A stretch of 44,853 bases of DNA from an uncultured archaeon (GCA_964392445.1 CAYMPD010000007.1:1-44853); one strand, 5' to 3'; numbered from the stretch's first letter, positions 9,822 to 34,043 are shown. A program made the numbers and translations. Notes: generated from the sequence alone by a model not told the origin.

Positions 9822-10292
9822 TCAAGTGGTCTTATCAAGGATCAAATGACTCAAATAACCCCAAATTATAACCAAAAAATAAAGTCCAAACTCAAATCCC
9901 GAAAATTCGAACATCAACCAAAGTAAAAAAGTTAATAATGAGGAAATTACTAAAGAGAACCAGAGAGTATGTGTTATCCCACGATGTTTAGTTGGGAAGA
10001 ATCGAAAAACTAGGTAAATAAATACAAAAATCACTACTGAAGAAACAACAGAGGTCACAGAGAAATTAATTATCAAATAACCAACTAAAACTACAGCAAG
10101 AATTAACGATACATACTTACGAATATTACTTTTAGGTGTGTCGATATCAGGAAAAATAGTAGCAAGTAAATTAAATAAAAGAAGGAAAAGAATTAGAAAA
10201 GGGTCTTTAATCCAACCCTGACCATAAAGAGAAATCAGAATAACAATAACAAAAATTAAGTCAAAGATTAAATGAATTTTCCAAGATGGCAA
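9822..10292 (-). CDS. Membrane-bound metal-dependent hydrolase (YdjM/DUF457-like); integration target
   Basis: H near N-terminus, FPDID, HRGITH, GYLSHLILD; TTG start; first codons contain the att core. Confidence 0.82.
   Translation of the reverse strand: MPSWKIHLIFDLIFVIVILISLYGQGWIKDPFLILFLLLFNLLATIFPDIDTPKSNIRKYVSLILAVVLVGYLIINFSVTSVVSSVVIFVFIYLVFRFFPTKHRGITHTLWFSLVISSLLTFLLWLMFEFSGFEFGLYFLVIIWGYLSHLILDKTT
10277..10291. repeat. attL core TTTTCCAAGATGGCA
   Basis: Exact 15-bp match to 34029-34043; 56 bp upstream of the integrase ATG. Confidence 0.85.
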
Positions 10293-10317
10293 TCGACATC
10301 ACGTGCATTAACTGCTC

Positions 10318-10325
10318 TTAATAAA
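10318..10325. promoter_or_regulatory. Putative bidirectional TATA box (TTAATAAA/TTTATTAA) for integrase and reconstituted hydrolase gene
   Basis: 22 nt before the integrase ATG on + and 25 nt before the hydrolase TTG on -. Confidence 0.45.
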
Positions 10326-10347
10326 GTATTATGCCGTTGATTAATAT

Positions 10348-11541
10348 ATGTCAGATGAAGTGGATAAAGATATTCAAAGGTTCAAAAATCACATACATTC
10401 AATGTTAAATTCGGAAGAATTGCTAGAGTCACAAAGAAAAGTTCTTAAGAGATATGATAAGATGAACCAAGCAAACGAATTGGAGGTAAGAACAAGAAGA
10501 AATTATCTTTGTAATTTAAAATCCTTCAGCAAAGAAATAAAGAAACCATATAAAGAAATGACAAAGGATGATATAGTAGATTTTTGTGCTTATATTGATG
10601 AGAACTGGAAAAAGAACACAATTAAATCAGCTAAATTTACTATAAGAGCATTTTTTAAATGGTTATATGATTCTGATGATTACCCAAGTGTTGTGAGTTG
10701 GATAAAGCCAAAGTCTAGTCCTGGTAGTAGAAAGAACCGCGATGAATTATTAACTGAAGAAGAAGTTCTTAAAATGCTTAATGCAACTACTAATCCCAGA
10801 GATAAAGCCCTTATTATGTTATTATTTGAGATAGGGATAAGAGGAACACAAGCTAGTAGATTGAAATTAAAAGATGTTACTTTTGATGAGAACGGTGGTT
10901 TAATATTCATACGGGGGATGAAGAAAGGAAGAGATAGCAGGATAAGAACAATTCAATCTACCCCTTTTCTCAAGAATTGGATCAATAATCACCCAAGGAA
11001 GGATGATAGGGAAGCACCTTTATTCGTTTCATTGTATGCACCACACGGGAGATTTTATAGAGGTGGAATGTATCAAATGGTTAAAAGAGTGGCAAAAAGG
11101 GCTGGAATTAAGAAGAATGTTTATCTCCACCTTTTTAGACATTCCGCTATGACGAATTTAGTAGATCAGGGTTTTGTTGAGTCTGAATTGGAGATAATAG
11201 GTACATGGGTAGAGGGGTCAGAGGCAACAAAAATATATGTTCATCCTACTGAAGAAAGCGTAAATAAAAAAAGATTGAGGAAAGAAGGAATCTTTAAGAA
11301 GGAAGATAAGAAAACAGAGAAAATACTTAAACCTAAAAGATGCATTAAATGTGGTTTTGATAAAAACCCAGCGACAAATAAATATTGTGAGGAATGCTTC
11401 TTTCCATTGGATTCTAAGAGTGCTATGGAATTAGATGAAAAAAGGAAAGAGTTGGATAAGAAAATCGAAAAGTTACATCCTTTATTAAAGAAACTTGAAG
11501 AGAACCCAGACATTCTAGAAAAATTAAGCAACGCGAAATGA
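10348..11541 (+). CDS. Tyrosine recombinase/integrase with C-terminal Zn ribbon
   Basis: N-terminal core-binding region; EIGIRG (R), K in GMKK, HLFRHS (HxxR), GTW, KIYVH (Y); CIKC...CEEC. Confidence 0.93.
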   Translation: MSDEVDKDIQRFKNHIHSMLNSEELLESQRKVLKRYDKMNQANELEVRTRRNYLCNLKSFSKEIKKPYKEMTKDDIVDFCAYIDENWKKNTIKSAKFTIRAFFKWLYDSDDYPSVVSWIKPKSSPGSRKNRDELLTEEEVLKMLNATTNPRDKALIMLLFEIGIRGTQASRLKLKDVTFDENGGLIFIRGMKKGRDSRIRTIQSTPFLKNWINNHPRKDDREAPLFVSLYAPHGRFYRGGMYQMVKRVAKRAGIKKNVYLHLFRHSAMTNLVDQGFVESELEIIGTWVEGSEATKIYVHPTEESVNKKRLRKEGIFKKEDKKTEKILKPKRCIKCGFDKNPATNKYCEECFFPLDSKSAMELDEKRKELDKKIEKLHPLLKKLEENPDILEKLSNAK

Positions 11542-11542
11542 T

Positions 11543-12703
11543 CTACTCCCTCTCATGTTCTTTTAACAATTGAATAAAATACTTCTCCAGATTGCTACCT
11601 GGTAAAACATGAAATATCAATGTATTGCCACCACCAACATAGGGGGAACAGCTGGAATTAAACCTATTATCACTAGAAATCTGTTCCTCTGGGGTTTCAA
11701 CTTTGGGTGATAGGGTATGGGGGGTGTAGTTATATTTATCTCCCCTTACAAAACTTATGGGAATGGAAGTAACAAAATTATTAACTGAGTTAAAATGTTC
11801 CCCCAACAAACGCTTCATATATCCGTCCAAAATACTGTAAAGTCCAGAATTGAGACCTATATAAGTACCTCTCTTTCTCTTAAACTTTTTCAAGTAATTT
11901 TTGAATAATTTTATCTCAACCTTTACCAGTTTTTCTTCTTTCAGTATTTGTGAAATTGTATTAAATGGGATACCAGCGAGACCATCTAAGATTCCATTAG
12001 GATTAGGTTTATGTTTTGGGTGATAGAATTTTATTCTTGCACCATTTAGTTGAGAAAATTGTTTTAGGTCAGTGGAGATTTCACCTGCTACATACTTTAT
12101 CTTAGAGTCTTTATTCCTAATTGCTTTGCAGATTTCTGTTTGATCTGTAAGTTGTTTTACTATTTGTGCATTGTCAGGAATGGCTATGTGAGGGTATATT
12201 TTTTCAGTCAAATTCCGTAGGTCTTCATAATCAATGATAATAAATTTATAGACCTCGAGAATTGTGCATTCACCAACATCCACTTTGGGGAAGAACACTT
12301 TGTGTATCCGACCCTTGGATTCTTTTCTGTCTAATGTAGTGAAATCAGTAAGGAAACTCTCGATGCGTTTTGGTATAGTATAATCTCTTCTTAGATCTGT
12401 GAAATCAAAATATAACGCTTTCTTGTGGAAGGTTACATTACCCACTCCCTGTAGAAGGGACTGACAGATGGGGCACATCTGAACTGCGTTATACCTAACT
12501 TTTATAATTTCTGGATGTTTAGGACATGAAAGGAGTTTGAAAGTAAAAGATTTATTCTGTTTGTTTAACTTCTTCTCCGCCGCATTTAGTCTTTCATTCA
12601 TTTTATCAATGAGGTTAGTGTCTTCTGTGTCTTTTAACTTTACTGAATACCTACCATGATGAAGACCTGAACCATCTAATTCATAATACCTAAACTTACC
12701 CAT
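11543..12703 (-). CDS. Hypothetical protein with CPKH...CPIC Zn-binding motif
   Basis: 386-aa ORF, last gene of the leftward operon; function unknown. Confidence 0.6.
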   Translation of the reverse strand: MGKFRYYELDGSGLHHGRYSVKLKDTEDTNLIDKMNERLNAAEKKLNKQNKSFTFKLLSCPKHPEIIKVRYNAVQMCPICQSLLQGVGNVTFHKKALYFDFTDLRRDYTIPKRIESFLTDFTTLDRKESKGRIHKVFFPKVDVGECTILEVYKFIIIDYEDLRNLTEKIYPHIAIPDNAQIVKQLTDQTEICKAIRNKDSKIKYVAGEISTDLKQFSQLNGARIKFYHPKHKPNPNGILDGLAGIPFNTISQILKEEKLVKVEIKLFKNYLKKFKRKRGTYIGLNSGLYSILDGYMKRLLGEHFNSVNNFVTSIPISFVRGDKYNYTPHTLSPKVETPEEQISSDNRFNSSCSPYVGGGNTLIFHVLPGSNLEKYFIQLLKEHERE

Positions 12704-13013: not shown

Positions 13014-13045
13014 ACCAATTCGTGAGAAGGCTTAGGGACCTTCTT

Positions 13046-14441: not shown

Positions 14442-14442
14442 C

Positions 14443-14967
14443 CTATCTTCTATGTGCCCTCGTAAAAGGTGAAGACCTCTCTCTCACTTTCAAAACTGTA
14501 AATGGTCTATGTCTATCGAAATCATAACCCTTTACTGCAAGAGACAAAGCCCAGAAATTGCTCAAGTCTTTGTTGATAATCTCATTGTTGTTACTGACAG
14601 CCCTGTTCGTTTCACTTATCAACTTCTTACAATTACTAGGTAAGATTAGTTCTTTACTCAAGAGCTTACCTTTAACAGAATCTATGAATGATTTCTTGTT
14701 ATCATCAGTGATCTTCTTATCTGTCCTTATACCTCTGTGAATATTACGGTCAATAACCAAGTTTCTACCTACTATAGTATTTGTGAGCAACCTATTCAAT
14801 TCCAAATCAAGTAAATACTTGGATATACTATCCAAATCTTGAGTTTCGGTTATCTCCTCAATTCTTAGTTTGCCGTTAGACTGTGATAGCAAAACTGAAC
14901 AGAATTCAAAGCTATCTTCGTTGAGATACACTCCACAATAATACCCTTCTAAATCTTTCTCACGCAT
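14443..14967 (-). CDS. Degenerate paralogue of the terminase RNase H-like nuclease domain
   Basis: Co-linear by eye with the C-terminal domain of the adjacent TerL; catalytic Asp positions not conserved. Confidence 0.55.
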   Translation of the reverse strand: MREKDLEGYYCGVYLNEDSFEFCSVLLSQSNGKLRIEEITETQDLDSISKYLLDLELNRLLTNTIVGRNLVIDRNIHRGIRTDKKITDDNKKSFIDSVKGKLLSKELILPSNCKKLISETNRAVSNNNEIINKDLSNFWALSLAVKGYDFDRHRPFTVLKVRERSSPFTRAHRR

Positions 14968-16232
14968 ACTTCATAATCCTCCGTAAACTTTTCCGCTACA
15001 TGATGCATTGGATTTCTATTAGCAAATACACATAAAGCCAGGGACATCACCATGTCGTCATGGTGCGGGTTTTTACTGAACTTGAAATTCCTCAGTTCGT
15101 TTATCAATTTACTGTCATTCGGAATTATTAATTTCTTGTTCTCGAACTTATTCCTCAGGAAGCTCAACAGATCCAACCTACTTTGCTTGGTGAATTTGAA
15201 CCCTTCCACTGGTAAACCTTTGTCTCGGATTTCCTCGAAAAGTGGTTCACCCAATCCCGTCTGATCAACAAGAATCTTGATGGGTCTGAAATTGTTGTTT
15301 ATCTGGTCTAGTACTTTCAACTGCTGGGAATAGTCAATCTTGTTGAACCTCTCGATATGAAATACCTTCAGATTGTTGGATTCAGTTCTTTGTACAACTG
15401 TGAATACCGAGAAGTCTTTGAGTTTAGCAAAGTCACAACCTACAAAATAAGTTCTGTCTTTTCCATGATTAACCATATCATATTCCTGAACACATGGGAG
15501 AATTAATGAATAGGGGAAGTAAGCGGTCTTCTCTTCCAGAAATTCGGCATTATACTCCTGCCTAAAGGTTAGTTCATCCATCTCATTTCTATCTTTTTCC
15601 AGATCCCTTTTGTTGATTGAAGGACATTGTTCTGATTTTATTTGCGACACAAAAGCACTCTTCCAGTTACTAAAGCATTCCCAGAAGAATCCTCGTTTTC
15701 CCAGAGGTGTTGATATTAACCATAAATTACCACCAGTCCGAATTAGCATTGGTTTGACAGCTCGATAATAAATTGAATCATCCTTGAAATGAGCAGCTTC
15801 GTCTATGTAAATAACGTCAGCAGAGTAACCAAGTATTGTTGAGATTGAATCTGGTAATGATATTATCCTAGAACCTGTGTCTAATTCTAGTTCGGTCTTA
15901 CTCCAGTTGTCAGAGTCTATACTGGGCTTCAGGAATTCATTAGTCTCTATTGTGGTCTTGATTTCTTTTAGGATTCTGACCGATTGTCTTAGTGAGGGCG
16001 AGAGTATCAACTGGAGGGAATTGGGTTGAGTAAACGCAGTATAGATGGACATAACTTTGATTACTGTTGATTTACCTGACTGTCGTCCCCAGACTAGGAG
16101 TTTGTTCTTAGAACTATCCAGAATTGCTTCTCTCTGATAATCATGTGGTTTGAAATCAAGAACTTGAGAAAGGAAGAAGATTGGATCTTGTTTACTTTTC
16201 TTCACAAATTCAGTTTTATCCATCATCACCAT
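14949..16232 (-). CDS. terL: Terminase large subunit
   Basis: Q-motif PHDYQ, Walker A GRQSGKS, Walker B IYIDEAAH, ISTP coupling motif, RQEYNAEF, nuclease VGCDFAK, LVDQTG, HDDMV. Confidence 0.92.
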   Translation of the reverse strand: MVMMDKTEFVKKSKQDPIFFLSQVLDFKPHDYQREAILDSSKNKLLVWGRQSGKSTVIKVMSIYTAFTQPNSLQLILSPSLRQSVRILKEIKTTIETNEFLKPSIDSDNWSKTELELDTGSRIISLPDSISTILGYSADVIYIDEAAHFKDDSIYYRAVKPMLIRTGGNLWLISTPLGKRGFFWECFSNWKSAFVSQIKSEQCPSINKRDLEKDRNEMDELTFRQEYNAEFLEEKTAYFPYSLILPCVQEYDMVNHGKDRTYFVGCDFAKLKDFSVFTVVQRTESNNLKVFHIERFNKIDYSQQLKVLDQINNNFRPIKILVDQTGLGEPLFEEIRDKGLPVEGFKFTKQSRLDLLSFLRNKFENKKLIIPNDSKLINELRNFKFSKNPHHDDMVMSLALCVFANRNPMHHVAEKFTEDYEVCVRKI

Positions 16233-16650
16233 CTTCGAATAGTTTGGATAATGTTAGATTCCCGGATAATTCTATGGACTTTGTTTGTTTTGGTGCTACA
16301 CCTAATTTCTGGAGGTTAAACACATAATCGTTCATTAATTTTCTCCTGAGTTTCATTATTCGGATACAGGAATTTACGTCGCCTTTTGCTTTGGCTTCTT
16401 TGTATAGATCCATTAATTCTTTTATGGAATTCTTGTGCGTGGTTTCTACTTCAACAAGTATTTGGGAATACTCTTCGTTTGATAATTGTTGTTTCAATTC
16501 TTTATCTAGTGCTTCAATATCTCTGTGGACCGTTCTTCTATTCACGTCTAGTTCTTCTGCTATTTCTGTGTTATTATATCCCTGGAAGAGTAATTCCATG
16601 ACCTTCTGTCTTCTGGCTACGACTTTCGGATGTGTGACATTCTGGGACAT
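16216..16650 (-). CDS. terS: Putative terminase small subunit (N-terminal HTH)
   Basis: QGYNNTEIAEELDVNRRTVHRDI HTH, helical middle region, overlaps the terL start. Confidence 0.7.
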   Translation of the reverse strand: MSQNVTHPKVVARRQKVMELLFQGYNNTEIAEELDVNRRTVHRDIEALDKELKQQLSNEEYSQILVEVETTHKNSIKELMDLYKEAKAKGDVNSCIRIMKLRRKLMNDYVFNLQKLGVAPKQTKSIELSGNLTLSKLFEDGDDG

Positions 16651-16841: not shown

Positions 16842-18161
16842 ATGACAGCTGAAATTGTGATAATGAACAAAGAAGCAATAGCTATTGCAGCCGATAGTGC
16901 GGTCACGATGATTGAGGAGGGGGGACAAAAAATTAAAACATCTGCAAATAAAGTTTTTACTTTGTCTAAGTATCACCCCGTTGGCATAATGGTTTATGGG
17001 GGAGCAATTTTTATGGGAATTCCATGGGAGACCATAATTAAGATTTACAGAAATAAATTGGGAAAAAAGAGGTTTGATACATTAAATGAATATACTGAGG
17101 ATTTCATAAAATTTCTAGATAATGGTAATCCATTATTCCCATCTTCTTTACAAGATGATTATTTAAAGAGCTCCATCTATGCTTACTTTAATTTTATTAA
17201 GATTAAAATCAAGGAAGAAGTAGAATCTAAAATTAATGAAAAGGGAGAGATCAGTAATAAAGAAATTAAAAAAATAGTATCGGAAATAATAAAAGAGGAT
17301 TATAGAACTTGGAACGAAACTGATAATATCTCATCTATTCCTGAAAAATATAATAGAGATATAATTGATAAGTACGGGAAGATAATTGATGAATCCATAG
17401 AAGAGATTTTTGAGGAATTACCCATGTCTAAAATCCTGTCAGATAAATTAAAAAAAATTGCAACGAGCTTATTTTCAAAATTTCCAGAAGGCGTTCAAAA
17501 AAGTGGAATTTCTGGTCTTGTTATAACTGGTTTTGGGGATAAAGAGACTTTTCCTTCAGTTAAATCGTTTTTTATTGAGGGAGTAGTTAATGATAGATTA
17601 AAATATAAAGAAGACGGGGATAGGTCTATGGAAATTAATTTTAAGTCAGGAGCCTCAATAATCCCTTTTGCTCAAAGTGAAATGGTAGAAATGTTCATGG
17701 AAGGAATAGATCCTTTCTATAGAAACATTGAGAAAAATTATCTATCTGAAGTTTTTAGTAAATATGCAGAAATAATTATTGATAGCATAGAAAAATATTC
17801 TAAAAATGAAAAAAATAAACTCAAAAAGAAACTGAATAAAATGACTAAAAAGATACTTAACGATCACAATGAAAAATTAGAAAACTACAGAAAGAGAAAG
17901 TATATTATCCCCGTTATAAATGTAGTTACGATGCTCCCAAAAGATGAGCTTGCAGCAATGGCAGAATCACTCGTAAATTTAACGTCCTTTAAAAGAAAAG
18001 TTACTATGGAAAGTGAAACAGTTGGTGGTCCAATTGACGTTGCTGTAATTTCCAAGGGTGATGGTTTTATATGGATTAAAAGAAAACATTATTTCAAGGG
18101 AGAACTGAACCCCCAGTTTTTTGCAAACTATTATAGAGGTGTGGGATATGAAAAAGAATAA
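16842..18161 (+). CDS. Putative Ntn-hydrolase (proteasome beta/HslV-like) with N-terminal Thr and large helical insertion
   Basis: M-T-AEIVIMNKEAIAIAADSAVT...NKVF and C-terminal ETVGGPIDVAVISKGDG match the two halves of the proteasome beta pattern. Confidence 0.62.
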   Translation: MTAEIVIMNKEAIAIAADSAVTMIEEGGQKIKTSANKVFTLSKYHPVGIMVYGGAIFMGIPWETIIKIYRNKLGKKRFDTLNEYTEDFIKFLDNGNPLFPSSLQDDYLKSSIYAYFNFIKIKIKEEVESKINEKGEISNKEIKKIVSEIIKEDYRTWNETDNISSIPEKYNRDIIDKYGKIIDESIEEIFEELPMSKILSDKLKKIATSLFSKFPEGVQKSGISGLVITGFGDKETFPSVKSFFIEGVVNDRLKYKEDGDRSMEINFKSGASIIPFAQSEMVEMFMEGIDPFYRNIEKNYLSEVFSKYAEIIIDSIEKYSKNEKNKLKKKLNKMTKKILNDHNEKLENYRKRKYIIPVINVVTMLPKDELAAMAESLVNLTSFKRKVTMESETVGGPIDVAVISKGDGFIWIKRKHYFKGELNPQFFANYYRGVGYEKE

Positions 18162-18332: not shown

Positions 18333-18644
18333 TTATTTAGGAGAATAGAGTACGAGTAACATTTCCCTAACAAAGTTAATCAAGAACACGCTAGCAAGCA
18401 ACCAATAAGTAATGTGATAAGTTCTAGTATATTTCGTCCCCTTAAAACCAAAGTGGCTTGCAAGGAGAATGAATACTACTACCAATAACCCGTATATCCA
18501 CGCGATGGTATTGCCTCGGGAGAACATGAATCGCATGATCGGGTTTGCTTCAATCATTTTTTTGATCGGAACTGTCAGTGAGGCTATTACAAGTGATCCG
18601 ATAAAACTGATAGTGAAGATGGTTAATGGGATATAACGGTTCAT
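18333..18644 (-). CDS. Small membrane protein with EANP motif (DUF5658-like)
   Basis: Three hydrophobic segments; IEANPIM; family call from recall and weak. Confidence 0.5.
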   Translation of the reverse strand: MNRYIPLTIFTISFIGSLVIASLTVPIKKMIEANPIMRFMFSRGNTIAWIYGLLVVVFILLASHFGFKGTKYTRTYHITYWLLASVFLINFVREMLLVLYSPK

Positions 18645-18723
18645 GTTTATTGTTACATCTTTGTTAATAAATTGTTAATAGTTTGGTAGAAGATGTGAAT
18701 AATATTGCTAATAAAATGTAAAT

Positions 18724-18984
18724 ATGAAATGGAAACTTTACTCATTTGTAATTAGGTCTAAGAGAAGGAAGGATATATTGCTGTCTTTGGAAAAGGCTAT
18801 GACACCTACAGAGATAGGGGATAAGGTTGGAGCAAGTGTTTCTCATGTGTCTAGAACTCTATCTGATTTCCAAGATCGGGAATTAGTTGAGTGTGTTACA
18901 CCGAAGCAAAAGGTTGGTAGAGTATATAAGCTAACTGAAGATGGTATGGAAATTTTAGAATATCTTAAAAAGAAGGATAAATAA
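18724..18984 (+). CDS. ArsR/MarR-like wHTH regulator
   Basis: MTPTEIGDKVGASVSHVSRTLSDFQDRELVEC...RVYKLTEDG. Confidence 0.82.
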   Translation: MKWKLYSFVIRSKRRKDILLSLEKAMTPTEIGDKVGASVSHVSRTLSDFQDRELVECVTPKQKVGRVYKLTEDGMEILEYLKKKDK

Positions 18985-19397: not shown

Positions 19398-19407
19398 AAA
19401 TTAAACC

Positions 19408-23275: not shown

Positions 23276-23498
23276 AGCACATCACCTCTGGGAGGACACA
23301 CACGGAAGGTTCATAATAAGAGTTACTGCGAAGCGGGAAGGATTAATTTAGAACCTGTGAGTTGATCTGGACAAGAGGGATGTGCGTATATGCGAAGTTA
23401 GAACAACTGAAAGGAAGATATCCACGGGACTCAAATATAGGATTGCCATTTATTTTTTTTGGATGGTTAGAATAATTTTTAGAGAAATAGAATAATTT

Positions 23499-24527: not shown

Positions 24528-27500
24528 TTATTTATTACTATTAAACTCCTCAATAATCTTGATTTTTTCAGGATTAAGCCCATATAATTTATAAACTAAT
24601 TGATCAATTTCTTTTTCTAGTTTTTTGACTTTTGCTTGTTTCTCAGGATTATCTAAATATTCGCTATCTTTAGTTATCAAGAGGATTTTATCTACTAGTT
24701 TTATGATGTCTGAAGTATTTCGAAGGTCCTTTGGGATTGGGATTTTATCTAAATATTGCGTGTGATACTTGTAGAACCCTCCAGAAAACATCGGACTGAT
24801 ATTTCTTATGAAAAAATCTATTAAAGGACTATTCAAAAGGGCGGTAAATATTTTGTAATTTTCCAAATCTTTCTGTCGTAAGATTATAGCGTAACAGTCA
24901 TGGTCTATACACATGAAATTATTCTTGTCGCTAAAATCATCTAATGCAAAACGATTTCTCTTGGATAAATTTGGGGTAATTATTTTTTTGGTTGCAAACA
25001 CTTCTATAGTACGTGGGTTCCAAATCTCATACCACTCCTTTCCCGCTTTAATTACATACGTTCTTTTCTTAAGTTGAGATTTATGAGTTTCTAAGTAAGT
25101 TTTTGTATTTGGAAAATTATTTAAATTTACTAATGAGGTTTTCCCATCTCTTAATTCATATGGATAAATTACATAACGATTGTCCCATCCAATGAAATAC
25201 TTTTTGATTTTCCTACCTTTAGGTAACTTTTTGATTAATTCAGGTTCGAGATTATGTTTTTTTATCGTCTCTTTATTTACAAAATAAGCTTTATTATTCC
25301 CCGTAATTAGTCCTTCATAGATTTTTTCACTATGGGTAGCTAAATTATCATATTTACTACTTTTTAACTTTTTCAGGAGTTTTAATATCTTCTTGTTGAC
25401 AAAAACCCAATTGTTCTTATCCAAATTAGATTGGTTGTATTTAAACGATGAAATATCTTCATTTTCAAATTTAGGTAAGCCTTTGGATAGGTTTAAACTA
25501 TGTAACAAACTCGAAGAGATTTGTTTAACATTAGCATAATAGATAATATTATCCTCGAGCTTTTCCTTTCTAAGCAAAATTATACATGGATAATTAGTTG
25601 CCCCCTCAAAAACTCCTTTATCACTGAAATCTATATAGATATTAATTGAGGTATGCTTCAATATAAATTCACGTATCTTACGACCGTAATGGGTATTGGT
25701 AAATTTATTTGGCATGATATATGATATGCTACCTCTTTTTCTTAAGATTTTGATCCCTAATTCCGTAAAAAGCACATAGAGATCAAATTTCCCTTTGGCC
25801 GAAATGAAGTTTGACTTATAGGCAGACTTAATTTCTTTATCAATTGATTGTATTCTAACATATGGTGGATTTCCTATAACAACATCAAATCCCGGATTCT
25901 CCCTCTGAAAAACTTCTGCAAAATACAATTTCCATAAGAAAAATGGTTTTGCTTTGTTCTTTTTATATTGTTTTAATTTTTTCATGGATTTCTCATTACC
26001 CTGTTCTTTGAGTGTTTCTTCAATTAATTCCCATTCTAATCTGTTTATTTTTTCTTTATGTTCTCTCTTGAGTTTCCTATTTTGTTCATTGAAGAATTTC
26101 TTCTGTAATTTTTTTAGGTCTTTTAGTTTTATCTGAGATTCCCTTATTCTTCTTTGCACAGCTTCATTCAAAGTTAAATTCCTTTCATTGTTATTGAATT
26201 TTGAAATAATCTTCTCCTTCTTCTTTCTTAGTCGTCGAATTTTTCTATCTATATCTTTTAGATTCTTTTCATCGGAACCTTTTCTGGCAATAATTCCCTT
26301 CTCTTCATATAATTCATTAATTTCATTATCAATTTCTTTTATTTTAGGAGAAACTTTCTCTTCAACTTCCCCAAGTAATCTCTCATCAAAAAGCTTGATC
26401 CCTTCAAATTCTTCTAATAAACTGTTACCACACATTATCTTATGGTCTAGATTTGGTAAGGGATTAATATTGGTTATATCCGTCTCATCTACAATTAAAG
26501 ATAACCACATCCTCAACTTACAAATCTGTACAGCTGATGGTTCAATATCAACCCCGTAAAGAGAATCTTCTATTATCTTCTTCTTCATATCATAGACATT
26601 CTCTTCTTTCCCAGAATATATTGATAATATGGATTGAGCTTTCTTTATTTCTTTCAACATGCCGATAAGAAATGCACCTGATCCACATGCCGGATCAACT
26701 ATTTTTATTTTCCCTAATAGACTATTGATCCTTTCTTGATTTTTCTCAATTGAATTCGGAATTATGCTTTCTTCATCCACATCACGTAACTCCCCATATC
26801 TTCTCCTTTGCTCCTGTGCTCTTATTGTTCGATCAAGGACTACATCTCCCATTTGGACAAATTTCTTAATGTCTTTATGAGGTATAGATATGTTTGTTTC
26901 AAGGTAGTTTATTAAACTCTGCTGGCACATATAATGAACTATTTCTCTGGGAGTATAGTATGCACCTTTAGATTTTCTCTCTTTGACATCTAGCAGTTTC
27001 TCAAAAACTTTACCTAGCATTTCTGGATCAACAGCAACCTCCTTTTCTAATGGTTCATCTTCTTTTACCGTAAAATTAAACCTATCAAAGGTATCAAAAA
27101 TTTCCTTGAAAATGGAATTATCCAGAGTTATCTCTGTCCCAGCCCAATCGTAATCATTTATAGGTTCAAATAAACCACCATTCAAGAAAGGAATTTTACA
27201 ATTAAACCTGCTATAATAGTCATGGTTAGCTCTCCTATCTTCTGCCAATGCTTCATAAAACAAGGGTTCTAATATTTCGTTAAAAAAGTTATCGTAATGA
27301 ACTATTCCCTTTTCAAATAGTTTTCTCATGAAATCTTTAGGTCCTGTTCCCCATTTATAAAAACCTTCTCCTGGACTCTTTTTAACCCCGAGCCATCCCT
27401 TCTTTTGTAAGAAATATAGGAATACAATTTGTCCCAACAATTTTTTAGCAAAATCAATGGTAGAAATATTTTTCTTTTCAAACTCTCCTTTGACATATTT

Positions 27501-28148
27501 ATTCTTATTGAGCAATTTTTCTAGTTCCTCTTTTAAATCGAGATAAAGTTCTTTATACTTCTTAAAGAAGTCTTCTGTAACTTTTTCAATACTAAAGGAT
27601 TCTTCAATTTCATCAGAAAGAGGATTCATCTCATCTTCCATAATCAATTCCAAGAATTGTTTTCTACATGTATGGTTTGGCTCATTCGGGCCAACTAAGA
27701 ACGAGTATCTCTTTGCGGGAGTAAGTTCCTTTTTCACTTTAACTTTCCCAGATTCACCCTTAACAAGATTATATTCCATCTTAACAAAAGAAAAACGCCA
27801 ATCTACCGTATCATCATAGAAAGCAACTAACGCAGCTTCTTTACGCATTTTTCCAAGCCAATTAGCTACGAAATTTCTTTGCATAGTCCTAGCTCTGTTT
27901 TTAGAGGAGGTTCTCTTTAACTTAACAACAAGTACTTCCATTTCTTTAGAATTTTTATCCTTGTAATTTCCTATCTGTATAAATTCTTCAATATAGTTCT
28001 TGTACTCATTAGCGATATAATTTGTACAATCCCTTTCCTTGACTTTAAACTCATTAAGTAGCTCTTTAACAAATTTAACATACCTTTTCAAATCAAAATT
28101 AGTCTTGAAAGTTTCATTGAGTAATTTAATCGTATTTTCTCGGTTCAT
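24528..28148 (-). CDS. Type IIG (Eco57I-like) restriction-modification enzyme, N6-adenine MTase
   Basis: FLNGGLF, GAYYTPREIV, motif I DPACGSGAFL, motif IV GNPPY, TaqI-C-like TRD. Confidence 0.9.
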   Translation of the reverse strand: MNRENTIKLLNETFKTNFDLKRYVKFVKELLNEFKVKERDCTNYIANEYKNYIEEFIQIGNYKDKNSKEMEVLVVKLKRTSSKNRARTMQRNFVANWLGKMRKEAALVAFYDDTVDWRFSFVKMEYNLVKGESGKVKVKKELTPAKRYSFLVGPNEPNHTCRKQFLELIMEDEMNPLSDEIEESFSIEKVTEDFFKKYKELYLDLKEELEKLLNKNKYVKGEFEKKNISTIDFAKKLLGQIVFLYFLQKKGWLGVKKSPGEGFYKWGTGPKDFMRKLFEKGIVHYDNFFNEILEPLFYEALAEDRRANHDYYSRFNCKIPFLNGGLFEPINDYDWAGTEITLDNSIFKEIFDTFDRFNFTVKEDEPLEKEVAVDPEMLGKVFEKLLDVKERKSKGAYYTPREIVHYMCQQSLINYLETNISIPHKDIKKFVQMGDVVLDRTIRAQEQRRRYGELRDVDEESIIPNSIEKNQERINSLLGKIKIVDPACGSGAFLIGMLKEIKKAQSILSIYSGKEENVYDMKKKIIEDSLYGVDIEPSAVQICKLRMWLSLIVDETDITNINPLPNLDHKIMCGNSLLEEFEGIKLFDERLLGEVEEKVSPKIKEIDNEINELYEEKGIIARKGSDEKNLKDIDRKIRRLRKKKEKIISKFNNNERNLTLNEAVQRRIRESQIKLKDLKKLQKKFFNEQNRKLKREHKEKINRLEWELIEETLKEQGNEKSMKKLKQYKKNKAKPFFLWKLYFAEVFQRENPGFDVVIGNPPYVRIQSIDKEIKSAYKSNFISAKGKFDLYVLFTELGIKILRKRGSISYIMPNKFTNTHYGRKIREFILKHTSINIYIDFSDKGVFEGATNYPCIILLRKEKLEDNIIYYANVKQISSSLLHSLNLSKGLPKFENEDISSFKYNQSNLDKNNWVFVNKKILKLLKKLKSSKYDNLATHSEKIYEGLITGNNKAYFVNKETIKKHNLEPELIKKLPKGRKIKKYFIGWDNRYVIYPYELRDGKTSLVNLNNFPNTKTYLETHKSQLKKRTYVIKAGKEWYEIWNPRTIEVFATKKIITPNLSKRNRFALDDFSDKNNFMCIDHDCYAIILRQKDLENYKIFTALLNSPLIDFFIRNISPMFSGGFYKYHTQYLDKIPIPKDLRNTSDIIKLVDKILLITKDSEYLDNPEKQAKVKKLEKEIDQLVYKLYGLNPEKIKIIEEFNSNK

Positions 28149-31100
28149 TTATTTCCCCACTAAATATTCTGATAGAATAACCTCTTTGGGTCCTGAAAGA
28201 TCTGCTGCTGTTCCAGCTAAATTTTCCTTAAATAGGAGAGGAGAAACACCTGCCCTTATTCTTGCTAAAATCTTGAGAGGGTTTGTTTCTCTCTCTATTT
28301 TTTCTAATATCTTTTTAACGGTCTTCTTAGCTATTCCACCTTCTTTCAACAACATGTAAAAATCCTGTAAATATTCCTCATCTTCTTCTGTAAATTCTTC
28401 TGAGTTCCTAATAGCTTTCAATATCTTAATCATCTTCGCCTCATGACTTCTACCTCCAGGACTTTTTAATTCTCCACTGAGATCTGTGAAGACTCTATTA
28501 AATTCCTTTTTATTTTCCTCTAAATATTCATAGAAATCATCACCTAATTTTTCTCTCTTCACGTTTTTCTTAGATTCCAAAATTTCGGCAGCTTCAGAGA
28601 ATTCAAGCTCTTTGACTTCTTTATTTCCAGATTGGTAAATCTTTCTTAGTTTCCCCTTTCTAAAAAAGGTTAATAGGGAATTATAGTTCTCCTCGTATTT
28701 TTTTGCAGTCCTTGCTTTCTTAGGGAGTCTTTTAATTCTCTCGAACAATTTTTTATCATTATCTCTAATATCTCTTAAAAGTTTAAGATATTTCAGCTCT
28801 GGATCTTCTTCATCCTCACCTACAATTAATTCTTTAGAGGCTAATTTCGTGAATAGATCATGAGATTTTATTTCTTCATCAGTTAGTAATTTAGCATCAT
28901 TCCCAAGCATTTCAATAAAGGTTTTTATTTTCGCCTCTGCGGCTTCCTTTAAACCGATGTTCTTATTAATCGGACCAGCTGGGAAGAAATTATATGTGTA
29001 GATGTTATCGAATGGTGGACTCTTACTGACTCTATTTACACGTCCTACCCGCTGCATCATTTTAACTGGATTCCACGGAATATCATAATTAATAACAACA
29101 TTAGATCGATGTAAGCTAACACCCTCTGATAAAAGATCAGTGGAGATCAATATCCTTATATCATCCTTTTGCTTTTTCTTTGGGAGATTAGCATCATAAT
29201 TATCAATGACTTTTTTTCTTTCATATTCCGAAGAATCTCCTGAGATAGCCATAACCTTGTTTTCAAACTCGGGATCCAAGTTCTTTTCAACATATTCAGC
29301 TGTTTCTTTTGACTCTGTAAAGACAAGTAATTTATGTTTCTTTAGTATATTATCTTGTTTAAGTAATTCAATAAATTTCTCCAGTTTAGGATCGTGATTT
29401 ACCTCCCGCCACATATTTTCTATTTGTTCTAATATTTCACGATCATGCTTTAGATGCTTGATAAAATTAGATTTAAACTCTTCTGATGAATATCTTTGAG
29501 CTTTATCCTCCTCAATAAGTTTCTGCACAGCCTCGTCATTATCACTTTCCAATAATTCGAATATCTTGTTGATATGCTTCTTACTGGTAAAAACTTGTCC
29601 CTTTTCATACTCTTCAATGAATCTATCGTAAGCATGAATGAATCTATTTATAGATTTCTTAAATGCGAAAAAACTACTTTCCAATCTTTTCAAGAGCAGG
29701 ATTTTCATAAATCCACCCATGTTCTTCTGAGAAAGTTCTTCTGGTTGAGAAATATCCTTTTTAAGATATAATAAGGGCGTGTATCTCGCGTATTTGAATT
29801 TCTTCATTATTAGCTCAAGAGTTTTATCGAATATTTCATCCAACTTTCCATCAAAATGATAGAGAATTGGTTTTGGTTTTTTAACTTCAGGGAATTTCAA
29901 ACCTTGTTTTTCTAAATCCTTCTTATAATATTTAATTATACTACTCCTTGTTCTTCTTACCATTAAATGTCTTAGAACATTTTTTCTTATACTTCTAGCG
30001 TTCTCTTGGACAACTTCAATATATTTTTCCTTATCTTTCACTCTATCGAGATTCTTAACTCTTCTGTGAAGTCTTTTGAAATATCTTTCTAGATCTCTTA
30101 CTTTAGGATTAGGTAATGTTGATCTATGAGCCCTTTGGAACAATTTTATTTGAGATAAAATATCAAGAGGGGTATTGTTCATGGGTGTTGCTGAAACCAG
30201 TATAATTCTTTTACCTCTACATATCTCAAACAATTTCTCATACATTTGAGTCATTTCATTTCGGAATCTATGACTCTCATCAATAATTATGTTCTTGTAC
30301 TTACTTGGGTCCCTTGACAATACTTTATCTAGCTTCCCTATAGACTGGAAATGAGCACTGACTCGCACATCAAGAAATACATTGGGCCAAGAGCCGGGAC
30401 TATCTCTGTTCAGTAAATTTGGAGGAGCGATCACTAAAGTTCCACCATCCAACTCTTTTGCAAGTATAGCAGCGATATAAGTTTTTCCCAAACCAACTAC
30501 ATCTGAGACGAAGACACCACCATACTCTTCTAGTTTCATTTTAGCGTCTCTAACAGCATCCTTTTGATATTCCAAATCCATAACATTTTCCGGTAATCCT
30601 TCCTCGAATAATTCCCGTTTATCTATGTTGATTTTCTCTCTAAGGTATTCGTAAAGGAATTTAAGGTATAAATCATAAGGTGTGATTTCTTTATTTAACC
30701 ACGTTTTTTTCTTGATAATATCAACATACTTTTCCGATACATCAACAGAATTTTCCCATAGTTCATTAAACTTCTCCAGTGAAAATTCGTAATCTGATAT
30801 ATTCTTCAATTCTACATTAAATTCCAGGTTATCTTTCAGACCAGATTTCGTGAAATTACTAGAGCCCGTTATTACTCTCCCATCATCTCTATCCCCCCTT
30901 CTGAATGTCATTATATAAAGTTTCGCATGAATTTTTTTAGTGGGATAAGCCCTTATTTCTAATTTCCCAGATTTCAACCACTCAACAAATTTCTTAGCCC
31001 CTTTTTCAACTTTTTTAGAATCCTTGGAATATTCAAATTCTTCAATAGTTTTACTAGAAATACTCTTCTTGATTTCTTTGGAGGACCGATAAAAGTTATC

Positions 31101-31364
31101 TAGAGATTCTTCTTCCCTCGATTCTTGAATCAAATCATACGCTTTTTTCCCCGTACTTATACCAATGAGAACTCTTATCTTCTCTGTTTTTTCTAATGAC
31201 TCATAAAGTTCATGGAATCCTGTTGCACGAAAATAACCCACTAGACAGTCAAAGAAACGGGTGTCTTTAATCAAGTGAGAGAATCTATCTACTAGTCTTT
31301 TACCTTCTTCATTTGTGATGAAAGTTAAGTCAGTTGTCATTTTCGAACCCCTATCAATATACAT
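28149..31364 (-). CDS. PLD (HKD) nuclease-SNF2-like helicase fusion
   Basis: HAKLYI...GSSNFT; DVVGLGKT; IIIDESH; SATP; SEGVSL...NYDIPWNP...QRVGRVNR; likely start ATG 31340. Confidence 0.9.
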   Translation of the reverse strand: MYIDRGSKMTTDLTFITNEEGKRLVDRFSHLIKDTRFFDCLVGYFRATGFHELYESLEKTEKIRVLIGISTGKKAYDLIQESREEESLDNFYRSSKEIKKSISSKTIEEFEYSKDSKKVEKGAKKFVEWLKSGKLEIRAYPTKKIHAKLYIMTFRRGDRDDGRVITGSSNFTKSGLKDNLEFNVELKNISDYEFSLEKFNELWENSVDVSEKYVDIIKKKTWLNKEITPYDLYLKFLYEYLREKINIDKRELFEEGLPENVMDLEYQKDAVRDAKMKLEEYGGVFVSDVVGLGKTYIAAILAKELDGGTLVIAPPNLLNRDSPGSWPNVFLDVRVSAHFQSIGKLDKVLSRDPSKYKNIIIDESHRFRNEMTQMYEKLFEICRGKRIILVSATPMNNTPLDILSQIKLFQRAHRSTLPNPKVRDLERYFKRLHRRVKNLDRVKDKEKYIEVVQENARSIRKNVLRHLMVRRTRSSIIKYYKKDLEKQGLKFPEVKKPKPILYHFDGKLDEIFDKTLELIMKKFKYARYTPLLYLKKDISQPEELSQKNMGGFMKILLLKRLESSFFAFKKSINRFIHAYDRFIEEYEKGQVFTSKKHINKIFELLESDNDEAVQKLIEEDKAQRYSSEEFKSNFIKHLKHDREILEQIENMWREVNHDPKLEKFIELLKQDNILKKHKLLVFTESKETAEYVEKNLDPEFENKVMAISGDSSEYERKKVIDNYDANLPKKKQKDDIRILISTDLLSEGVSLHRSNVVINYDIPWNPVKMMQRVGRVNRVSKSPPFDNIYTYNFFPAGPINKNIGLKEAAEAKIKTFIEMLGNDAKLLTDEEIKSHDLFTKLASKELIVGEDEEDPELKYLKLLRDIRDNDKKLFERIKRLPKKARTAKKYEENYNSLLTFFRKGKLRKIYQSGNKEVKELEFSEAAEILESKKNVKREKLGDDFYEYLEENKKEFNRVFTDLSGELKSPGGRSHEAKMIKILKAIRNSEEFTEEDEEYLQDFYMLLKEGGIAKKTVKKILEKIERETNPLKILARIRAGVSPLLFKENLAGTAADLSGPKEVILSEYLVGK

Positions 31365-31368
31365 CTCG

Positions 31369-31602
31369 TTATTCTTTTAAAACCTCTTCACCCTTATCCG
31401 TTATACTTAAAGCAAAAGATCTTCCTTCACCCACTCTTTTAACAATCAAACCTAAATCCTCAATTGATTTCAAAGAAGTTGAAACAACCGGTCTTGAAAG
31501 TTTAATAAACTCCTGAACATCTTTAACTTGACAACCAGGGTTTTCTTTGATGAATCGTAAGATTCTGCTAGTTCTTTTTTCCATATTATCTATGTTAATC
31601 AT
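31369..31602 (-). CDS. Small wHTH protein (MarR-like), possible controller of the R-M module
   Basis: IKENPGCQVKDVQEFIKLSRPVVSTSLKSIEDLGLI...SITDKG. Confidence 0.75.
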   Translation of the reverse strand: MINIDNMEKRTSRILRFIKENPGCQVKDVQEFIKLSRPVVSTSLKSIEDLGLIVKRVGEGRSFALSITDKGEEVLKE

Positions 31603-31638
31603 TGTGAATTAATAGATTTAAAAAACTATGATTTATCT

Positions 31639-32862
31639 TCAATCTCCATCAAACTTCTCCCTATCACTAAGTTTTGACAAATACATCCTATAACTCTCTT
31701 CTACAGTCTGATACTCCTTTACTCTATCCACCAATTCCTTGCTCCACCCAAACTCCTCAGGATTACGAACTATTTTCCCAAGCGTCCTAACATTCAAGTT
31801 TGATACTTCCATCCACTTACCTGAATCCTTAATCAATCCATCCAGTTCATCCCTTCTCTTATCAGATGTTCTTGGGAACTTAGATATGCGATACAATTTT
31901 ACCCGGAGTTTTTCGTCATTTCCTCTTATTATCTCAACTCCTTCTTCCTTTGAATATGCTATCAATGCCTCCTGGACTTTAGATAATTCTTCTTCTATTT
32001 CTTTCACTAAAGTCTTCTTTTTCTCAGTTAGTTCAACATACTTATTCACAAGTTTGACTCCTGGTTCATTCAGATATTCATTGACTTCCATTTCTTCTGT
32101 CATTTTAATGTGCTTCCAAAGAGGACACATCTCCTGATATTCACACCATTTACATAAAGAAGTCTGGTTGGGTGGGAACTCCGTAGTGTTTTCTACTTTC
32201 TCTATTAATCTTAAAATCTCCCTTTTGAGTTCTTTTAAGTCTTCCTTTGTTCTCTCAGAAGTAATTATCTTATCAAACACCAAATAATGCCATACTAATT
32301 TAACACTCTTCACATCATCCCACATCTCTTTCAAGGCTAACTGATACAATGCCAACTGGGTATCATTATCTTTCTCTTCTTGGGTGGGTAGATTACCAGA
32401 GGTCTTGTAGTCGTGAATCCCGTAATTACTATCACCATCTTCGGACAACCTGTCTATATAACCAACCAATTCATTACCATTACCAAGATCAACAATAACC
32501 TGTTTCTCGGTAGCAAGGGTTTTATCCCCATCAAAAGGATGATGTCTATTCCAATAGTCTTCAATACACTTCTTTCCTAACTCCTTGTAATTCCCGGGTG
32601 TGTATTCCTTCCTGACTACAACCACATTATCCGTCCAATTCTTAGTCCATTCCTTTTCGTAGAAATTTAGAATATCCCGCAAGGAAACCTTCTTACACAT
32701 CTTGATATCATCATACAACTTTTCCAGTGTTTCATGAACCCTAGCACCCACGAATGATTCTATTCCTTCAACATCCGATTTCACTTTATCTATGTATTTG
32801 AGCTTGTATTTCAAAGGACAATTCTTGAACGTGGTTAGTCTTGAATGAGAATAGCGTGTCAT
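31639..32862 (-). CDS. RecB/AddB-family PD-(D/E)XK nuclease with Fe-S cysteines and C-terminal extension
   Basis: YSHSRL...CPLKY, GARVHETLE, GYIDRL, HDYKT, QLALY, CKWCEYQEMCP. Confidence 0.87.
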   Translation of the reverse strand: MTRYSHSRLTTFKNCPLKYKLKYIDKVKSDVEGIESFVGARVHETLEKLYDDIKMCKKVSLRDILNFYEKEWTKNWTDNVVVVRKEYTPGNYKELGKKCIEDYWNRHHPFDGDKTLATEKQVIVDLGNGNELVGYIDRLSEDGDSNYGIHDYKTSGNLPTQEEKDNDTQLALYQLALKEMWDDVKSVKLVWHYLVFDKIITSERTKEDLKELKREILRLIEKVENTTEFPPNQTSLCKWCEYQEMCPLWKHIKMTEEMEVNEYLNEPGVKLVNKYVELTEKKKTLVKEIEEELSKVQEALIAYSKEEGVEIIRGNDEKLRVKLYRISKFPRTSDKRRDELDGLIKDSGKWMEVSNLNVRTLGKIVRNPEEFGWSKELVDRVKEYQTVEESYRMYLSKLSDREKFDGD

Positions 32863-32911
32863 GTGTTAAATATTGTGGGTTAGAGTTAATAATGTAATCC
32901 TTCCCAGAACC

Positions 32912-32944
32912 CGAGCATAAAGTCCCGAAGGGACATTTAGCGAG
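32912..32944. repeat. CGAG-flanked GTCCC-GAA-GGGAC hairpin element
   Basis: CGAG-CATAAA-[hairpin]-ATTTAG-CGAG; architecture resembles 16702-16740. Confidence 0.45.
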
Positions 32945-32957
32945 GTAATTTATTCTA

Positions 32958-33239
32958 TTATTGATCAGAAACATTAGCGTAGGTAACTGTAACAGTAGGT
33001 GTCCTCTTCTTTGGATATATAGTTAGATCTATCTCGTTTGTCTCCCTCGCCGCTTCTGTCAATAATTCAGAGAGTTCCAAACTCTGACTTTTATCTAATC
33101 TCAAAGAAACTGTGGTGCCTCCCCATTCTTCCTTATCTTTCATCCAAAGTTTATCTGGTTTAATCGTTCCCAAATATTTCCTTTTAGTGCTTTTTTTAGC
33201 TTTCTTTTTATAGTCTTCTAAATCTATATCTAATTCCAT
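32958..33239 (-). CDS. Hypothetical protein (start reassigned to MELDID)
   Basis: GGAGGG RBS upstream of ATG 33239. Confidence 0.6.
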   Translation of the reverse strand: MELDIDLEDYKKKAKKSTKRKYLGTIKPDKLWMKDKEEWGGTTVSLRLDKSQSLELSELLTEAARETNEIDLTIYPKKRTPTVTVTYANVSDQ

Positions 33240-33255
33240 TTTCGATATCCCTCCT

Positions 33256-33408
33256 TTATTTTTTCTCATTAATTTCCTTTATCACGATATCTCCATTATG
33301 ATCAAAACCCACGACTAACTCCTGACCCTTCTCCCATTTCTTCAGTTTTACATACTGCTTTGGGATTGTAATTGAGTATCTATTTTTGACTTCTTGTAGT
33401 TTTACCAT
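33256..33408 (-). CDS. AbrB/MazE/SpoVT-type DNA-binding protein, 50 aa (missing from the ORF track)
   Basis: MVKLQEVKNRYSITIPKQYVKLKKWEKGQELVVGFDHNGDIVIKEINEKK fits the swapped-hairpin signature (xITIPK...W.xG..L......I.I). Confidence 0.8.
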   Translation of the reverse strand: MVKLQEVKNRYSITIPKQYVKLKKWEKGQELVVGFDHNGDIVIKEINEKK

Positions 33409-33925
33409 TATTAATCAACCATAGTTCAATTATATCGACACATATCTTTGGATTTAAAATAATTGTCTTGTATTTATGCAGTAATTGTTTTCCCTTTCTC
33501 AAAAATGCCTTTTCTTTTGTTACAAAAATATGACTTCCCCGCATTATATGTGTATTAAGATGCATACAATCTCTTATACTTCTTATCTTATTTTTTTCAT
33601 TCATCTTATCTAGATCTGGGAATATTAGCCTTTTTAGATCTTCAAGTCTTTTAGCATCTTTTTTACTACTAAAAACTGCGTGATCAAATCTAGAACTATC
33701 AAATACACCAAATCCAATGTCTTCTTCAAATCCACTAGTTTTTTTCAATTCTTTCTCTGTAATAGATTTAATTGGAGTGCCCCCGAACTTTTTTTCTGTG
33801 TCAAGAACATCAGTTTTTCTGATTTCAATAATCCCTTCCTCATGAAATTTTTCTAATCTACTAAGGTTTTCATCAGGTTTAAGTTGCATACAACATGTAT
33901 CAAAAGTAAGTGTTAGTCTTCTCAA
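33380..33925 (-). CDS. PIN-domain-like protein
   Basis: TFDTC (beta1 Asp), LDTE, RDCMHL...IFVTKEKAF acidic pattern; TTG start. Confidence 0.65.
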   Translation of the reverse strand: MRRLTLTFDTCCMQLKPDENLSRLEKFHEEGIIEIRKTDVLDTEKKFGGTPIKSITEKELKKTSGFEEDIGFGVFDSSRFDHAVFSSKKDAKRLEDLKRLIFPDLDKMNEKNKIRSIRDCMHLNTHIMRGSHIFVTKEKAFLRKGKQLLHKYKTIILNPKICVDIIELWLINNGKTTRSQK

Positions 33926-34028
33926 GTTCCCACCTTATACTAAAATCATAAATAGTAAAGAAATTATTTATACCAAAAATCATAAGATATTATAGTAAAA
34001 GAGTGGAATGCATAACAAGTCCTTTGCC

Positions 34029-34043
34029 TTTTCCAAGATGGCA
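34029..34043. repeat. attR core TTTTCCAAGATGGCA
   Basis: Exact match to 10277-10291; on the minus strand it reads ATG CCA TCT TGG AAA from 34044, the original 5' end of the hydrolase gene. Confidence 0.85.

Follow-up and report, generated by a model that had tools for sequence, protein, structure and literature searches.

An integrated mobile element of about 23.75 kb was found in the genome of an uncultured archaeon, which is a member of the Candidatus Aenigmatarchaeota (DPANN). The stretch of DNA analyzed here has a length of 44,853 nt (GCA_964392445.1, CAYMPD010000007.1:1-44853) and is referred to as the window, with all positions counted from its first base. The element occupies positions 10292-34028 and interrupts the first codons of a gene encoding a YdjM-family membrane hydrolase (ydjM in the following). 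With a probability of roughly 0.88, it was inserted by its own tyrosine integrase through recombination of an attachment (att) site on the element, attP, with a chromosomal site, attB, located in this gene. The borders of the insertion are exact, its integrase gene and its target gene are intact, and the empty site is present in related genomes.

Borders of the element and empty sites

The element is bordered by two exact copies of the 15-mer TTTTCCAAGATGGCA, which are located at positions 10277-10291 and 34029-34043. These two are the only copies in the whole assembly of 1,215,121 bp in 54 contigs, and no third copy was found in the window when up to 3 mismatches were allowed. A tandem or nested second att site was therefore rejected, as the window is devoid of a degenerate copy of the core. 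The left copy corresponds to nucleotides 2-16 (codons 1-5) of a minus-strand open reading frame (ORF) of 156 amino acids (aa), and 56 nt lie between the end of this core and the ATG of the integrase gene. The right copy lies inside a gap of 190 nt, which is flanked by the last ORF of foreign appearance (33380-33925) and by a small ORF of the host (34118-34351). Since the AT-rich window contains nine distinct exact repeat pairs of at least 15 nt, the repeat alone is at chance level and is no evidence in itself; its weight comes from the position of the two copies. For the two boundary intervals (about 70 nt x 190 nt), around 5e-5 matches of 15 nt are expected, as estimated from the base composition.

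When the outer flanks are joined by removing positions 10292-34043, the sequence ATG CCA TCT TGG AAA ATT CAT (MPSWKIH) is obtained, and the first 15 residues of the restored YdjM N-terminus are the same as in the related genome G004. The present left junction reads TTG CCA TCT TGG AAA.

The host genes on both sides of the element are pyruvate:ferredoxin oxidoreductase genes to the left of ydjM and the small ORF together with an ATP-grasp_5 (acdB-like) gene to the right of attR. In relatives, acdB was found directly upstream of ydjM on one contig, namely in the same-genus genomes G001-G004 and in the same-family genomes G009 and G010. A scan using one genome per GTDB species gave the same order at nine out of nine loci (L044-L052), five of which re-find G001, G002, G004, G009, and G010, the new species being L047, L048, L049, and L051. 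Altogether, empty sites were identified in 10 related genomes from several genera, with acdB upstream of ydjM, either with or without the small ORF. All ydjM orthologues at these sites start with ATG CCN TCN TGG AAR (MPSWK). In several relatives, the ATG of ydjM is located only 4-8 nt past the stop codon of acdB; within the genus of the host, about 300 nt and a small ORF are found between the two genes, with a TATA-like box before the ATG. Furthermore, the small ORF to the right of attR has a homologue with 78% identity at the same place in G004.

Orthologues of five internal genes were sought in the close, same-genus relatives, and none was found. Among the 118 genomes of the order, the large terminase subunit (TerL) of the element has matches in three and its 439-aa gene in one, and for the 385-aa radical-SAM gene and the HKD-Snf2 helicase gene the family contains no orthologue, only weak matches at the domain level.

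An exact 16-nt attB was additionally detected at the ydjM start of locus L053 (G014:C58:509-932). This locus was rejected as an occupied site, as it is devoid of an integrase and represents a different synteny, with a GrpE-like gene upstream in place of acdB. Its ydjM orthologue is broken by a TAG stop codon.

An initial annotation, which had been made from the sequence alone, had proposed an integrative element in the first codons of a protein-coding gene, and not in a tRNA gene, with the exact repeat as its borders and with outer flanks that restore the start MPSWKIH. These proposals hold: both copies were recovered and are unique in the assembly, the restored start is the conserved MPSWK start of the 10 relatives, and the intact integrase together with the empty sites speaks for an insertion at this place. 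The same source had advised looking in relatives for an empty site at which acdB and the small ORF abut the hydrolase gene, which is what the 10 genomes show, and it had named internal genes forming a stable core of related genomes as an argument to the contrary, which is not the case for the five genes tested.

Start of the target gene and the integrase family

In the proposed mechanism, attP (GTCCTTTGCC-core-ATCGACATCA) would recombine with attB (ATTAAATGAA-core-TCAAAAATAA), the latter being nucleotides 2-16 of the conserved YdjM-family gene. The usual two-step strand exchange within the 15-nt identity of TTTTCCAAGATGGCA would leave two direct copies, and the crossover could hypothetically be placed within TTCCAAG. 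Because this identity does not include the first base of the start codon, the TTG of the element would afterwards serve as the start of the gene.

The first base of the native start codon of the target gene is located one nucleotide outside the core, so that ATG was exchanged for an element-derived TTG, while the other codons of the 156 are unchanged. Three positions upstream of the TTG, the in-frame codon is a stop codon, so that the TTG is the first possible start of the target gene. In addition, an out-of-frame ATG (10293-10299, minus strand) opens an ORF of 12 codons that overlaps with the beginning of the target gene, and a Shine-Dalgarno-like GTGAT motif ends 6 nt before the TTG; the short ORF or the motif could affect the translation of the patched gene.

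The nonamer TTTATTAAG occurs four times in the window, both strands included, and two of these occurrences precede start codons, namely the native ATG and the new TTG, by 24-34 nt. The position of the box fits the TATA box of an archaeal short-leader or leaderless transcript. By bringing a TTTATTAAG box to a near-native distance from the start codon, the element end would provide a replacement promoter, as in bacterial elements targeting dusA and prfC. The box of the element probably has this function for the target gene, and the likeliest reading of the junction is that the element end is shaped to keep the interrupted gene expressed. A bacterial promoter scan of the junction was set aside, since it is meaningless for an archaeon.

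The integrase contains the catalytic residues R165, K192/193, H261, R264, W287, and Y297, it aligns to the XerA structures 4a8e and 5hxy, and its zinc ribbon (CxxC..CxxC) spans residues 332-350. A 'suicidal' integrase of the SSV type was rejected, as the 397-aa ORF is unsplit and the core is located 56 nt upstream and not inside the gene. We infer that this enzyme performed the insertion, and the element may be mobile to the present day.

Homologues of the integrase with about 400 aa and 28-38% identity were identified in 68 of the 118 genomes of the order, and also in many further metagenome bins of DPANN and other archaea. Many of the closest loci lie beside tRNA genes that are read towards the integrase, namely tRNA-Glu, tRNA-Leu (three loci), and tRNA-Asp, all detected by ARAGORN, and three intron-containing tRNAs detected by Rfam only. 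The 3′ end of the tRNA is located 48-80 nt before the integrase start in six of eight further loci. On contigs of sufficient length, the second att copy was also found: in G015 and G021, elements of 7.4-8.2 kb are delimited by a 13-nt core located at the 3′ end of a tRNA with an intron, and in G068 an element of 7.8 kb is delimited by a 15-nt core located at the 3′ end of tRNA-Thr; the cores of all three end 59-63 nt before the integrase ATG. A search for repeats beside the integrases of G035, G096, and G090 gave no convincing att site. The expectation of the initial annotation that integrases of this kind mostly target tRNA genes thus fits these relatives, which mostly adjoin tRNA genes. The geometry of the family, with a core of 13-15 nt located 48-80 nt before the integrase, matches that of the window (15 nt and 56 nt) and gives independent support for the 15-mer as the real core.

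The tRNAs of loci L062 (G015:C11) and L068 (G021:C10), which contain introns and lie about 130-155 nt upstream of the integrase, are the att targets with the 13-nt core CCCATCCGAGGCT. They were missed by ARAGORN and found by eye, and similar intron-containing tRNAs were found in L025, L028, and L030 using the Rfam tRNA model. Adjacency counts based on ARAGORN alone therefore underestimate tRNA targeting in these archaea. Locus L032 (G013:C2:23449-25919) carries two integrase genes of the family back to back, which diverge from a spacer of 276 nt and may represent two elements at one site.

In a maximum-likelihood tree of 25 integrases, the enzyme of the window groups with that of G010:C1 (support 99/96), followed by those of G076:C18 and G002:C179 (89/87). 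This group of four has no tRNA neighbours, and all tRNA-adjacent integrases belong to the other clade. The integrase of G010:C1 (L031, locus 2472-2546) starts 73 nt past the stop codon at the 3′ end of a gene for a CDP-alcohol phosphatidyltransferase and may therefore use the 3′ end of a protein gene as target, the other end of this element lying off the contig. This is a hint at a use of protein-gene ends by the whole subclade, the distal ends of the three sister elements being unassembled.

Gene content of the element

The element comprises about 27 tightly packed ORFs, and its main features are listed in Table 1 together with those of the borders.

Table 1. Features of the element, its borders, and the adjacent host genes (positions in the window).
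Feature	Position	Strand	Evidence and remarks
YdjM-family membrane hydrolase (target), 156 aa, intact, starts with TTG at 10292-10290	9822-10292	-	PF04307, E 6.7e-12; orthologues in 10 relatives start ATG-MPSWK
attL core, 15-nt identity	10277-10291		exact repeat; minus strand is nucleotides 2-16 of the YdjM-family coding sequence
Integrated element body, ~23.75 kb	10292-34028		found in none of the examined relatives between acdB and ydjM
Element-borne TATA-like box TTTATTAAG	10317-10325	-	putative promoter; 26-34 nt upstream of TTG; on the opposite strand, 22 nt before integrase ATG
Tyrosine integrase, 397 aa: SAM-like N-domain, catalytic domain, C-terminal CxxC..CxxC zinc ribbon	10348-11541	+	PF00589 1.4e-21; PF13495 1e-10; XerA 4a8e 8.6e-16
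386-aa ORF, function unknown	11543-12703	-	conserved next to the integrase in a single related element
Winged-helix protein, 314 aa	13497-14441	+	low similarity to initiators of phage replication and to helicase loaders
TerL, full length	14949-16232	-	phrog_2 1e-44; Terminase_6N and 6C
Helix-turn-helix protein, small-terminase-like (TerS)	16216-16650	-	Terminase_5 4.1e-6; phrog_2538
439-aa cargo protein, phrog_5990 (function unknown)	16842-18161	+	full-length match, E 4.6e-125
Six-gene radical-SAM / Nudix / nucleotidyltransferase / DUF5680 operon (cargo)	18987-23060	-	missing from similar module in G004:C47 and G000:C3
Cas4-like PD-(D/E)XK nuclease	23868-24476	-	
Type IIG restriction-modification enzyme, 1206 aa	24528-28148	-	PDLC03596 5.4e-195; Eco57I 1.1e-39
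HKD (PLD) nuclease fused to Snf2-type helicase, 1071 aa	28149-31364	-	PDLC01075 4.5e-45
PD-(D/E)XK nuclease, 407 aa	31639-32862	-	PF12705 1.5e-34
attR core	34029-34043		exact repeat; the displaced native ATG has its A (complement T) at base 34044
Native TATA-like box TTTATTAAG	34067-34075	-	putative promoter; 24-32 nt upstream of displaced ATG
Host genes to the right: small ORF (34118-34351), acdB-like ATP-grasp gene (34344-35036)	34118-35036	-	PF13549 4.6e-80; abut ydjM in relatives

The 386-aa ORF next to the integrase gene has one homologue (58% identity) among 1.84 billion representative proteins. It is encoded as a 385-aa neighbour (P0121) on the same contig as an integrase with 78% identity to that of the window (P0002), and the order of integrase, 386-aa ORF and small ORF is kept there. 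This contig (ENA XBBZ8_ZJ, sample ERZ24794676) begins 115 nt upstream of its integrase gene. No similarity to the ORFs beside the integrases of G068 and G015 was found. An Atlas feature search gave weak leads only (0.86, Rep-like clusters), and the AlphaFold model, calculated from an alignment of 2 sequences, was unusable with a pLDDT of 32.7.

The terminase TerL shows about 31% identity to TerL of Meiothermus/Thermus phages and 30% to that of Halogranum tailed virus 1. In Streptococcus satellite prophages and in some prophages, homologues of the phrog_5990 protein occupy the outermost ends, where accessory or defence genes are typically located. The remaining genes encode a DUF5658 protein, a small helix-turn-helix (HTH) protein, a MarR-like protein, the products of two small ORFs following the 386-aa ORF, and those of two unknown ORFs.

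A module consisting of the DUF5658 gene, the small HTH gene, and a 60-aa ORF (18333-18984 and 23169-23418) recurs with 74-93% similarity in G004:C47:1-1610 (L086) beside a different integrase, and as a fragment elsewhere in the host genome, at G000:C3:46454-47348 (L087). The radical-SAM/Nudix operon interrupts it in the window only. As this operon is missing in the other two modules, it represents a later cargo insertion, and the element is a mosaic.

A module of head-tailed-virus genes was observed outside the window in the same genome, on the minus strand of contig C9 of G000 (24720-32931; L071:4720-12931). It comprises TerL (484 aa), a portal protein (522 aa, phrog_9232 2.4e-23) and downstream ORFs of 1170 aa and more than 1394 aa, and may belong to a provirus or to a co-binned virus. 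Finally, four plus-strand ORFs without Pfam match were found to the right of the element (35118-38204), between acdB and a gene encoding a VTT-domain protein (38249-38851). Since acdB and the VTT-domain gene adjoin each other in G001, this region is a second variable islet, located next to a tRNA-Gln gene (38883-38972).

Alternative explanations and known systems

Several observations weigh against a mobile element that was inserted by site-specific recombination and leaves its target gene functional. Neither a circular form (attP) nor an empty form (attB) of the strain was seen. A 21-mer specific for attP had a single match in metagenome contigs, which lies in a purA-like ORF of an unrelated GC-rich contig and was taken as chance, and 0 matches in viral contigs; the 21-mer specific for attL/attP had 0 matches in metagenome contigs. 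No relatives were found in IMG/VR when searching with TerL, the 386-aa ORF and the integrase, and one close relative of the element only is known. TTG is a poorer start codon than ATG, and together with the out-of-frame ATG 7 nt upstream this means that the target gene may be under-expressed or silent. Among the ORFs of the element, no excisionase was recognised, and no Pfam or PHROG match to portal, capsid, protease or tail genes was obtained for the 27 ORFs. Joining the inner ends gives TTGCCTT-TTCCAAG-ATGGCAA, so that the inverted arms around a 7-bp spacer claimed for attP in the initial annotation are indeed present with a match of 6/7. However, 4.3% of random 35-mers of the window also contain a 6/7 arm pair with a 6-8-nt spacer in the core, and the arms of attB match at 5/7 at best. 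The arm geometry is thus statistically weak and only suggestive.

A real but disruptive integration is possible, although we consider it doubtful. In that case ydjM would have been cut from its ATG and its promoter and would be silent or poorly expressed, its intact frame would reflect a recent insertion, and excision would reactivate it, similar to skin/sigK or SpyCI/mutL. This is favoured by the exchange of the start codon and the competing ATG described above, and by the many relatives in which the short distance of 4-8 nt to acdB makes a co-transcription of both genes probable, a linkage which the insertion would break. Moreover, the expression of bacterial dusA falls after integration (10.1101/2021.06.18.448947). 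Within the genus of the host, however, the two genes are already separated by about 300 nt and the small ORF, and ydjM has a TATA-like box of its own. An identical TTTATTAAG at a nearly equal distance from the TTG is unlikely to have arisen by chance, with four copies in 44.8 kb, and the residues that are invariant across six aligned YdjM family members, the protein of the window included, are all present.

That the repeat is coincidental, so that the island was acquired otherwise, has other borders and contains the integrase as a bystander, is very unlikely. The nine unrelated repeat pairs of the window and the weak inverted arms of attP would allow it, but both copies of TTTTCCAAGATGGCA lie exactly at the breaks of synteny with the 10 empty sites and recreate ATG-MPSWK when rejoined, such a match between the boundary intervals is hardly expected, and the spacing between core and integrase equals that of the relatives. 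An even smaller probability is assigned to an artefact of assembly or binning, in which the genome of a free plasmid or virus was erroneously built into a chromosomal contig. The genome is indeed a metagenome-assembled genome of 54 contigs, and integrases of this family are often located at contig ends; on the other hand, the shared sequence of 15 nt is shorter than the k-mers of assemblers, two independent junctions are reciprocal, and the GC content is uniform across the borders. Finally, it can be considered next to negligible that the 23.8 kb are ancestral and were deleted between the repeats in all relatives. No observation speaks for this formal possibility, as the same precise loss would be required in at least 10 genomes of several genera, and the content is typical cargo of mobile elements accompanied by an integrase.

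Concerning the nature of the integrated element, a complete head-tailed provirus (Caudoviricetes) was rejected, since TerL is present but portal, HK97-fold capsid, and tail genes were undetected by Pfam and PHROG in the 27 ORFs. The unassigned ORFs amount to about 1,150 aa in total, which is too little for a virion module, although the 386-aa ORF, which is the sole large one among them and whose structure model could not be used, might encode a very divergent capsid protein. We read the element as a capsid-less cryptic integrated element with packaging genes, i.e., as a decayed head-tailed provirus or a satellite. Like satellites of the phage-inducible chromosomal island (PICI) type and decayed head-tailed proviruses, it combines an integrase and packaging genes with defence cargo and has no detectable capsid, portal or tail genes; unlike PICIs, which usually carry the small terminase only, it also encodes a full-length large terminase. 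A more far-reaching reading, which we regard as unlikely, takes the element for an active satellite that has no capsid and belongs to a head-tailed DPANN virus. It would have its own TerL and TerS and could be packaged by a helper such as the contig C9 region; its integrase lineage would have switched from tRNA 3′ ends to protein-gene ends, and a promoter and start-codon patch would keep the host gene alive. The TerL-portal region of contig C9 is a conceivable helper for a capsid-less element, but no observation connects them. The list of archaeal satellites in 10.1101/2025.02.15.638363 contains none of a head-tailed archaeal virus.

Integration into the 5′ end of a protein gene with restoration of the frame is described for dusA-targeting elements, for which a new promoter was shown experimentally in the case of IMEVchUSA3, and a new promoter and 5′ end were stated for SXT at prfC (10.1101/2021.06.18.448947). 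As in these elements of Proteobacteria (dusA elements and the integrative and conjugative element SXT), a tyrosine integrase is associated with an insertion into the 5′ end of a conserved protein gene; here, too, the att core lies in the first codons and the frame is restored by element sequence, with a TTG from the element and an intact ORF. In the bacterial cases about 35 N-terminal residues are replaced by divergent sequence, whereas in the DPANN host only the first base of the start codon was exchanged.

In Thaumarchaeota, 14 of 68 elements are located in the 3′-distal portions of protein genes, with att sites down to 13 bp that were confirmed through empty sites in relatives (Krupovic et al., 2019; PMC6563490). 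They resemble the present element in being archaeal, in their tyrosine integrases, very short att sites, protein-gene targets, and validation by empty sites, and many of them are 'cryptic integrated elements'. However, all 14 lie in the 3′-distal part and provide a new stop codon, while the element described here lies in codons 1-5 and provides a new start codon and upstream region (PMC6563490). Further archaeal cases of att sites in protein genes are compiled in a review, which says that none was biochemically tested (PMC8371274). Across prokaryotes, 39.9% of border-delimited proviruses are located in coding sequences, and the lengths of att cores peak at 14 and 47 bp (PMC13626063).

The tRNA-targeting integrases of the same family and order show 30-38% identity to that of the window and share with it their size of about 400 aa, their domains, their place as first gene inside the element, and the spacing of the core. 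Their target is the 3′ end of a tRNA read towards the element, whereas in the window it is the 5′ end of a protein gene read away from it. The archaeal XerA proteins of P. abyssi (4a8e) and T. acidophilum (5hxy) are the best matches among solved structures and have the catalytic motifs in common. In contrast to the integrase of the window, XerA is not element-borne and resolves chromosome dimers at dif; the N-terminus of the integrase is longer, its C-terminus bears a zinc ribbon, and it is located at an element border.

Integration into coding sequences using short cores is already well documented, so that the gain lies in range and detail, not in principle. What sets this case apart is its host lineage, a location within codons 1-5 that alters one base of the start codon, a promoter look-alike, and an integrase whose family mainly uses tRNA genes. 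Viruses and mobile elements of DPANN archaea have reportedly been surveyed by Wu et al. in 2024 (cited in PMC13573593). The element is precisely delimited, with borders at base level and ten empty sites, in the Aenigmatarchaeota, a DPANN lineage for which few described elements were found. Its clean attP/attB pair, the 15-nt core, and the compact integrase are suited to in vitro testing. If the reading as an active satellite were true, the element would be the first satellite of the PICI type for a tailed virus of archaea, and its 'repairing' integration at a 5′ end would likewise have no archaeal precedent. For the integrase family, which mostly uses the 3′ ends of tRNA genes, the window indicates a branch with other targets, here the invariant MPSWK start of a membrane-hydrolase gene, and it offers an archaeal parallel to dusA and prfC in bacteria, where an element patches the 5′ end it has interrupted.

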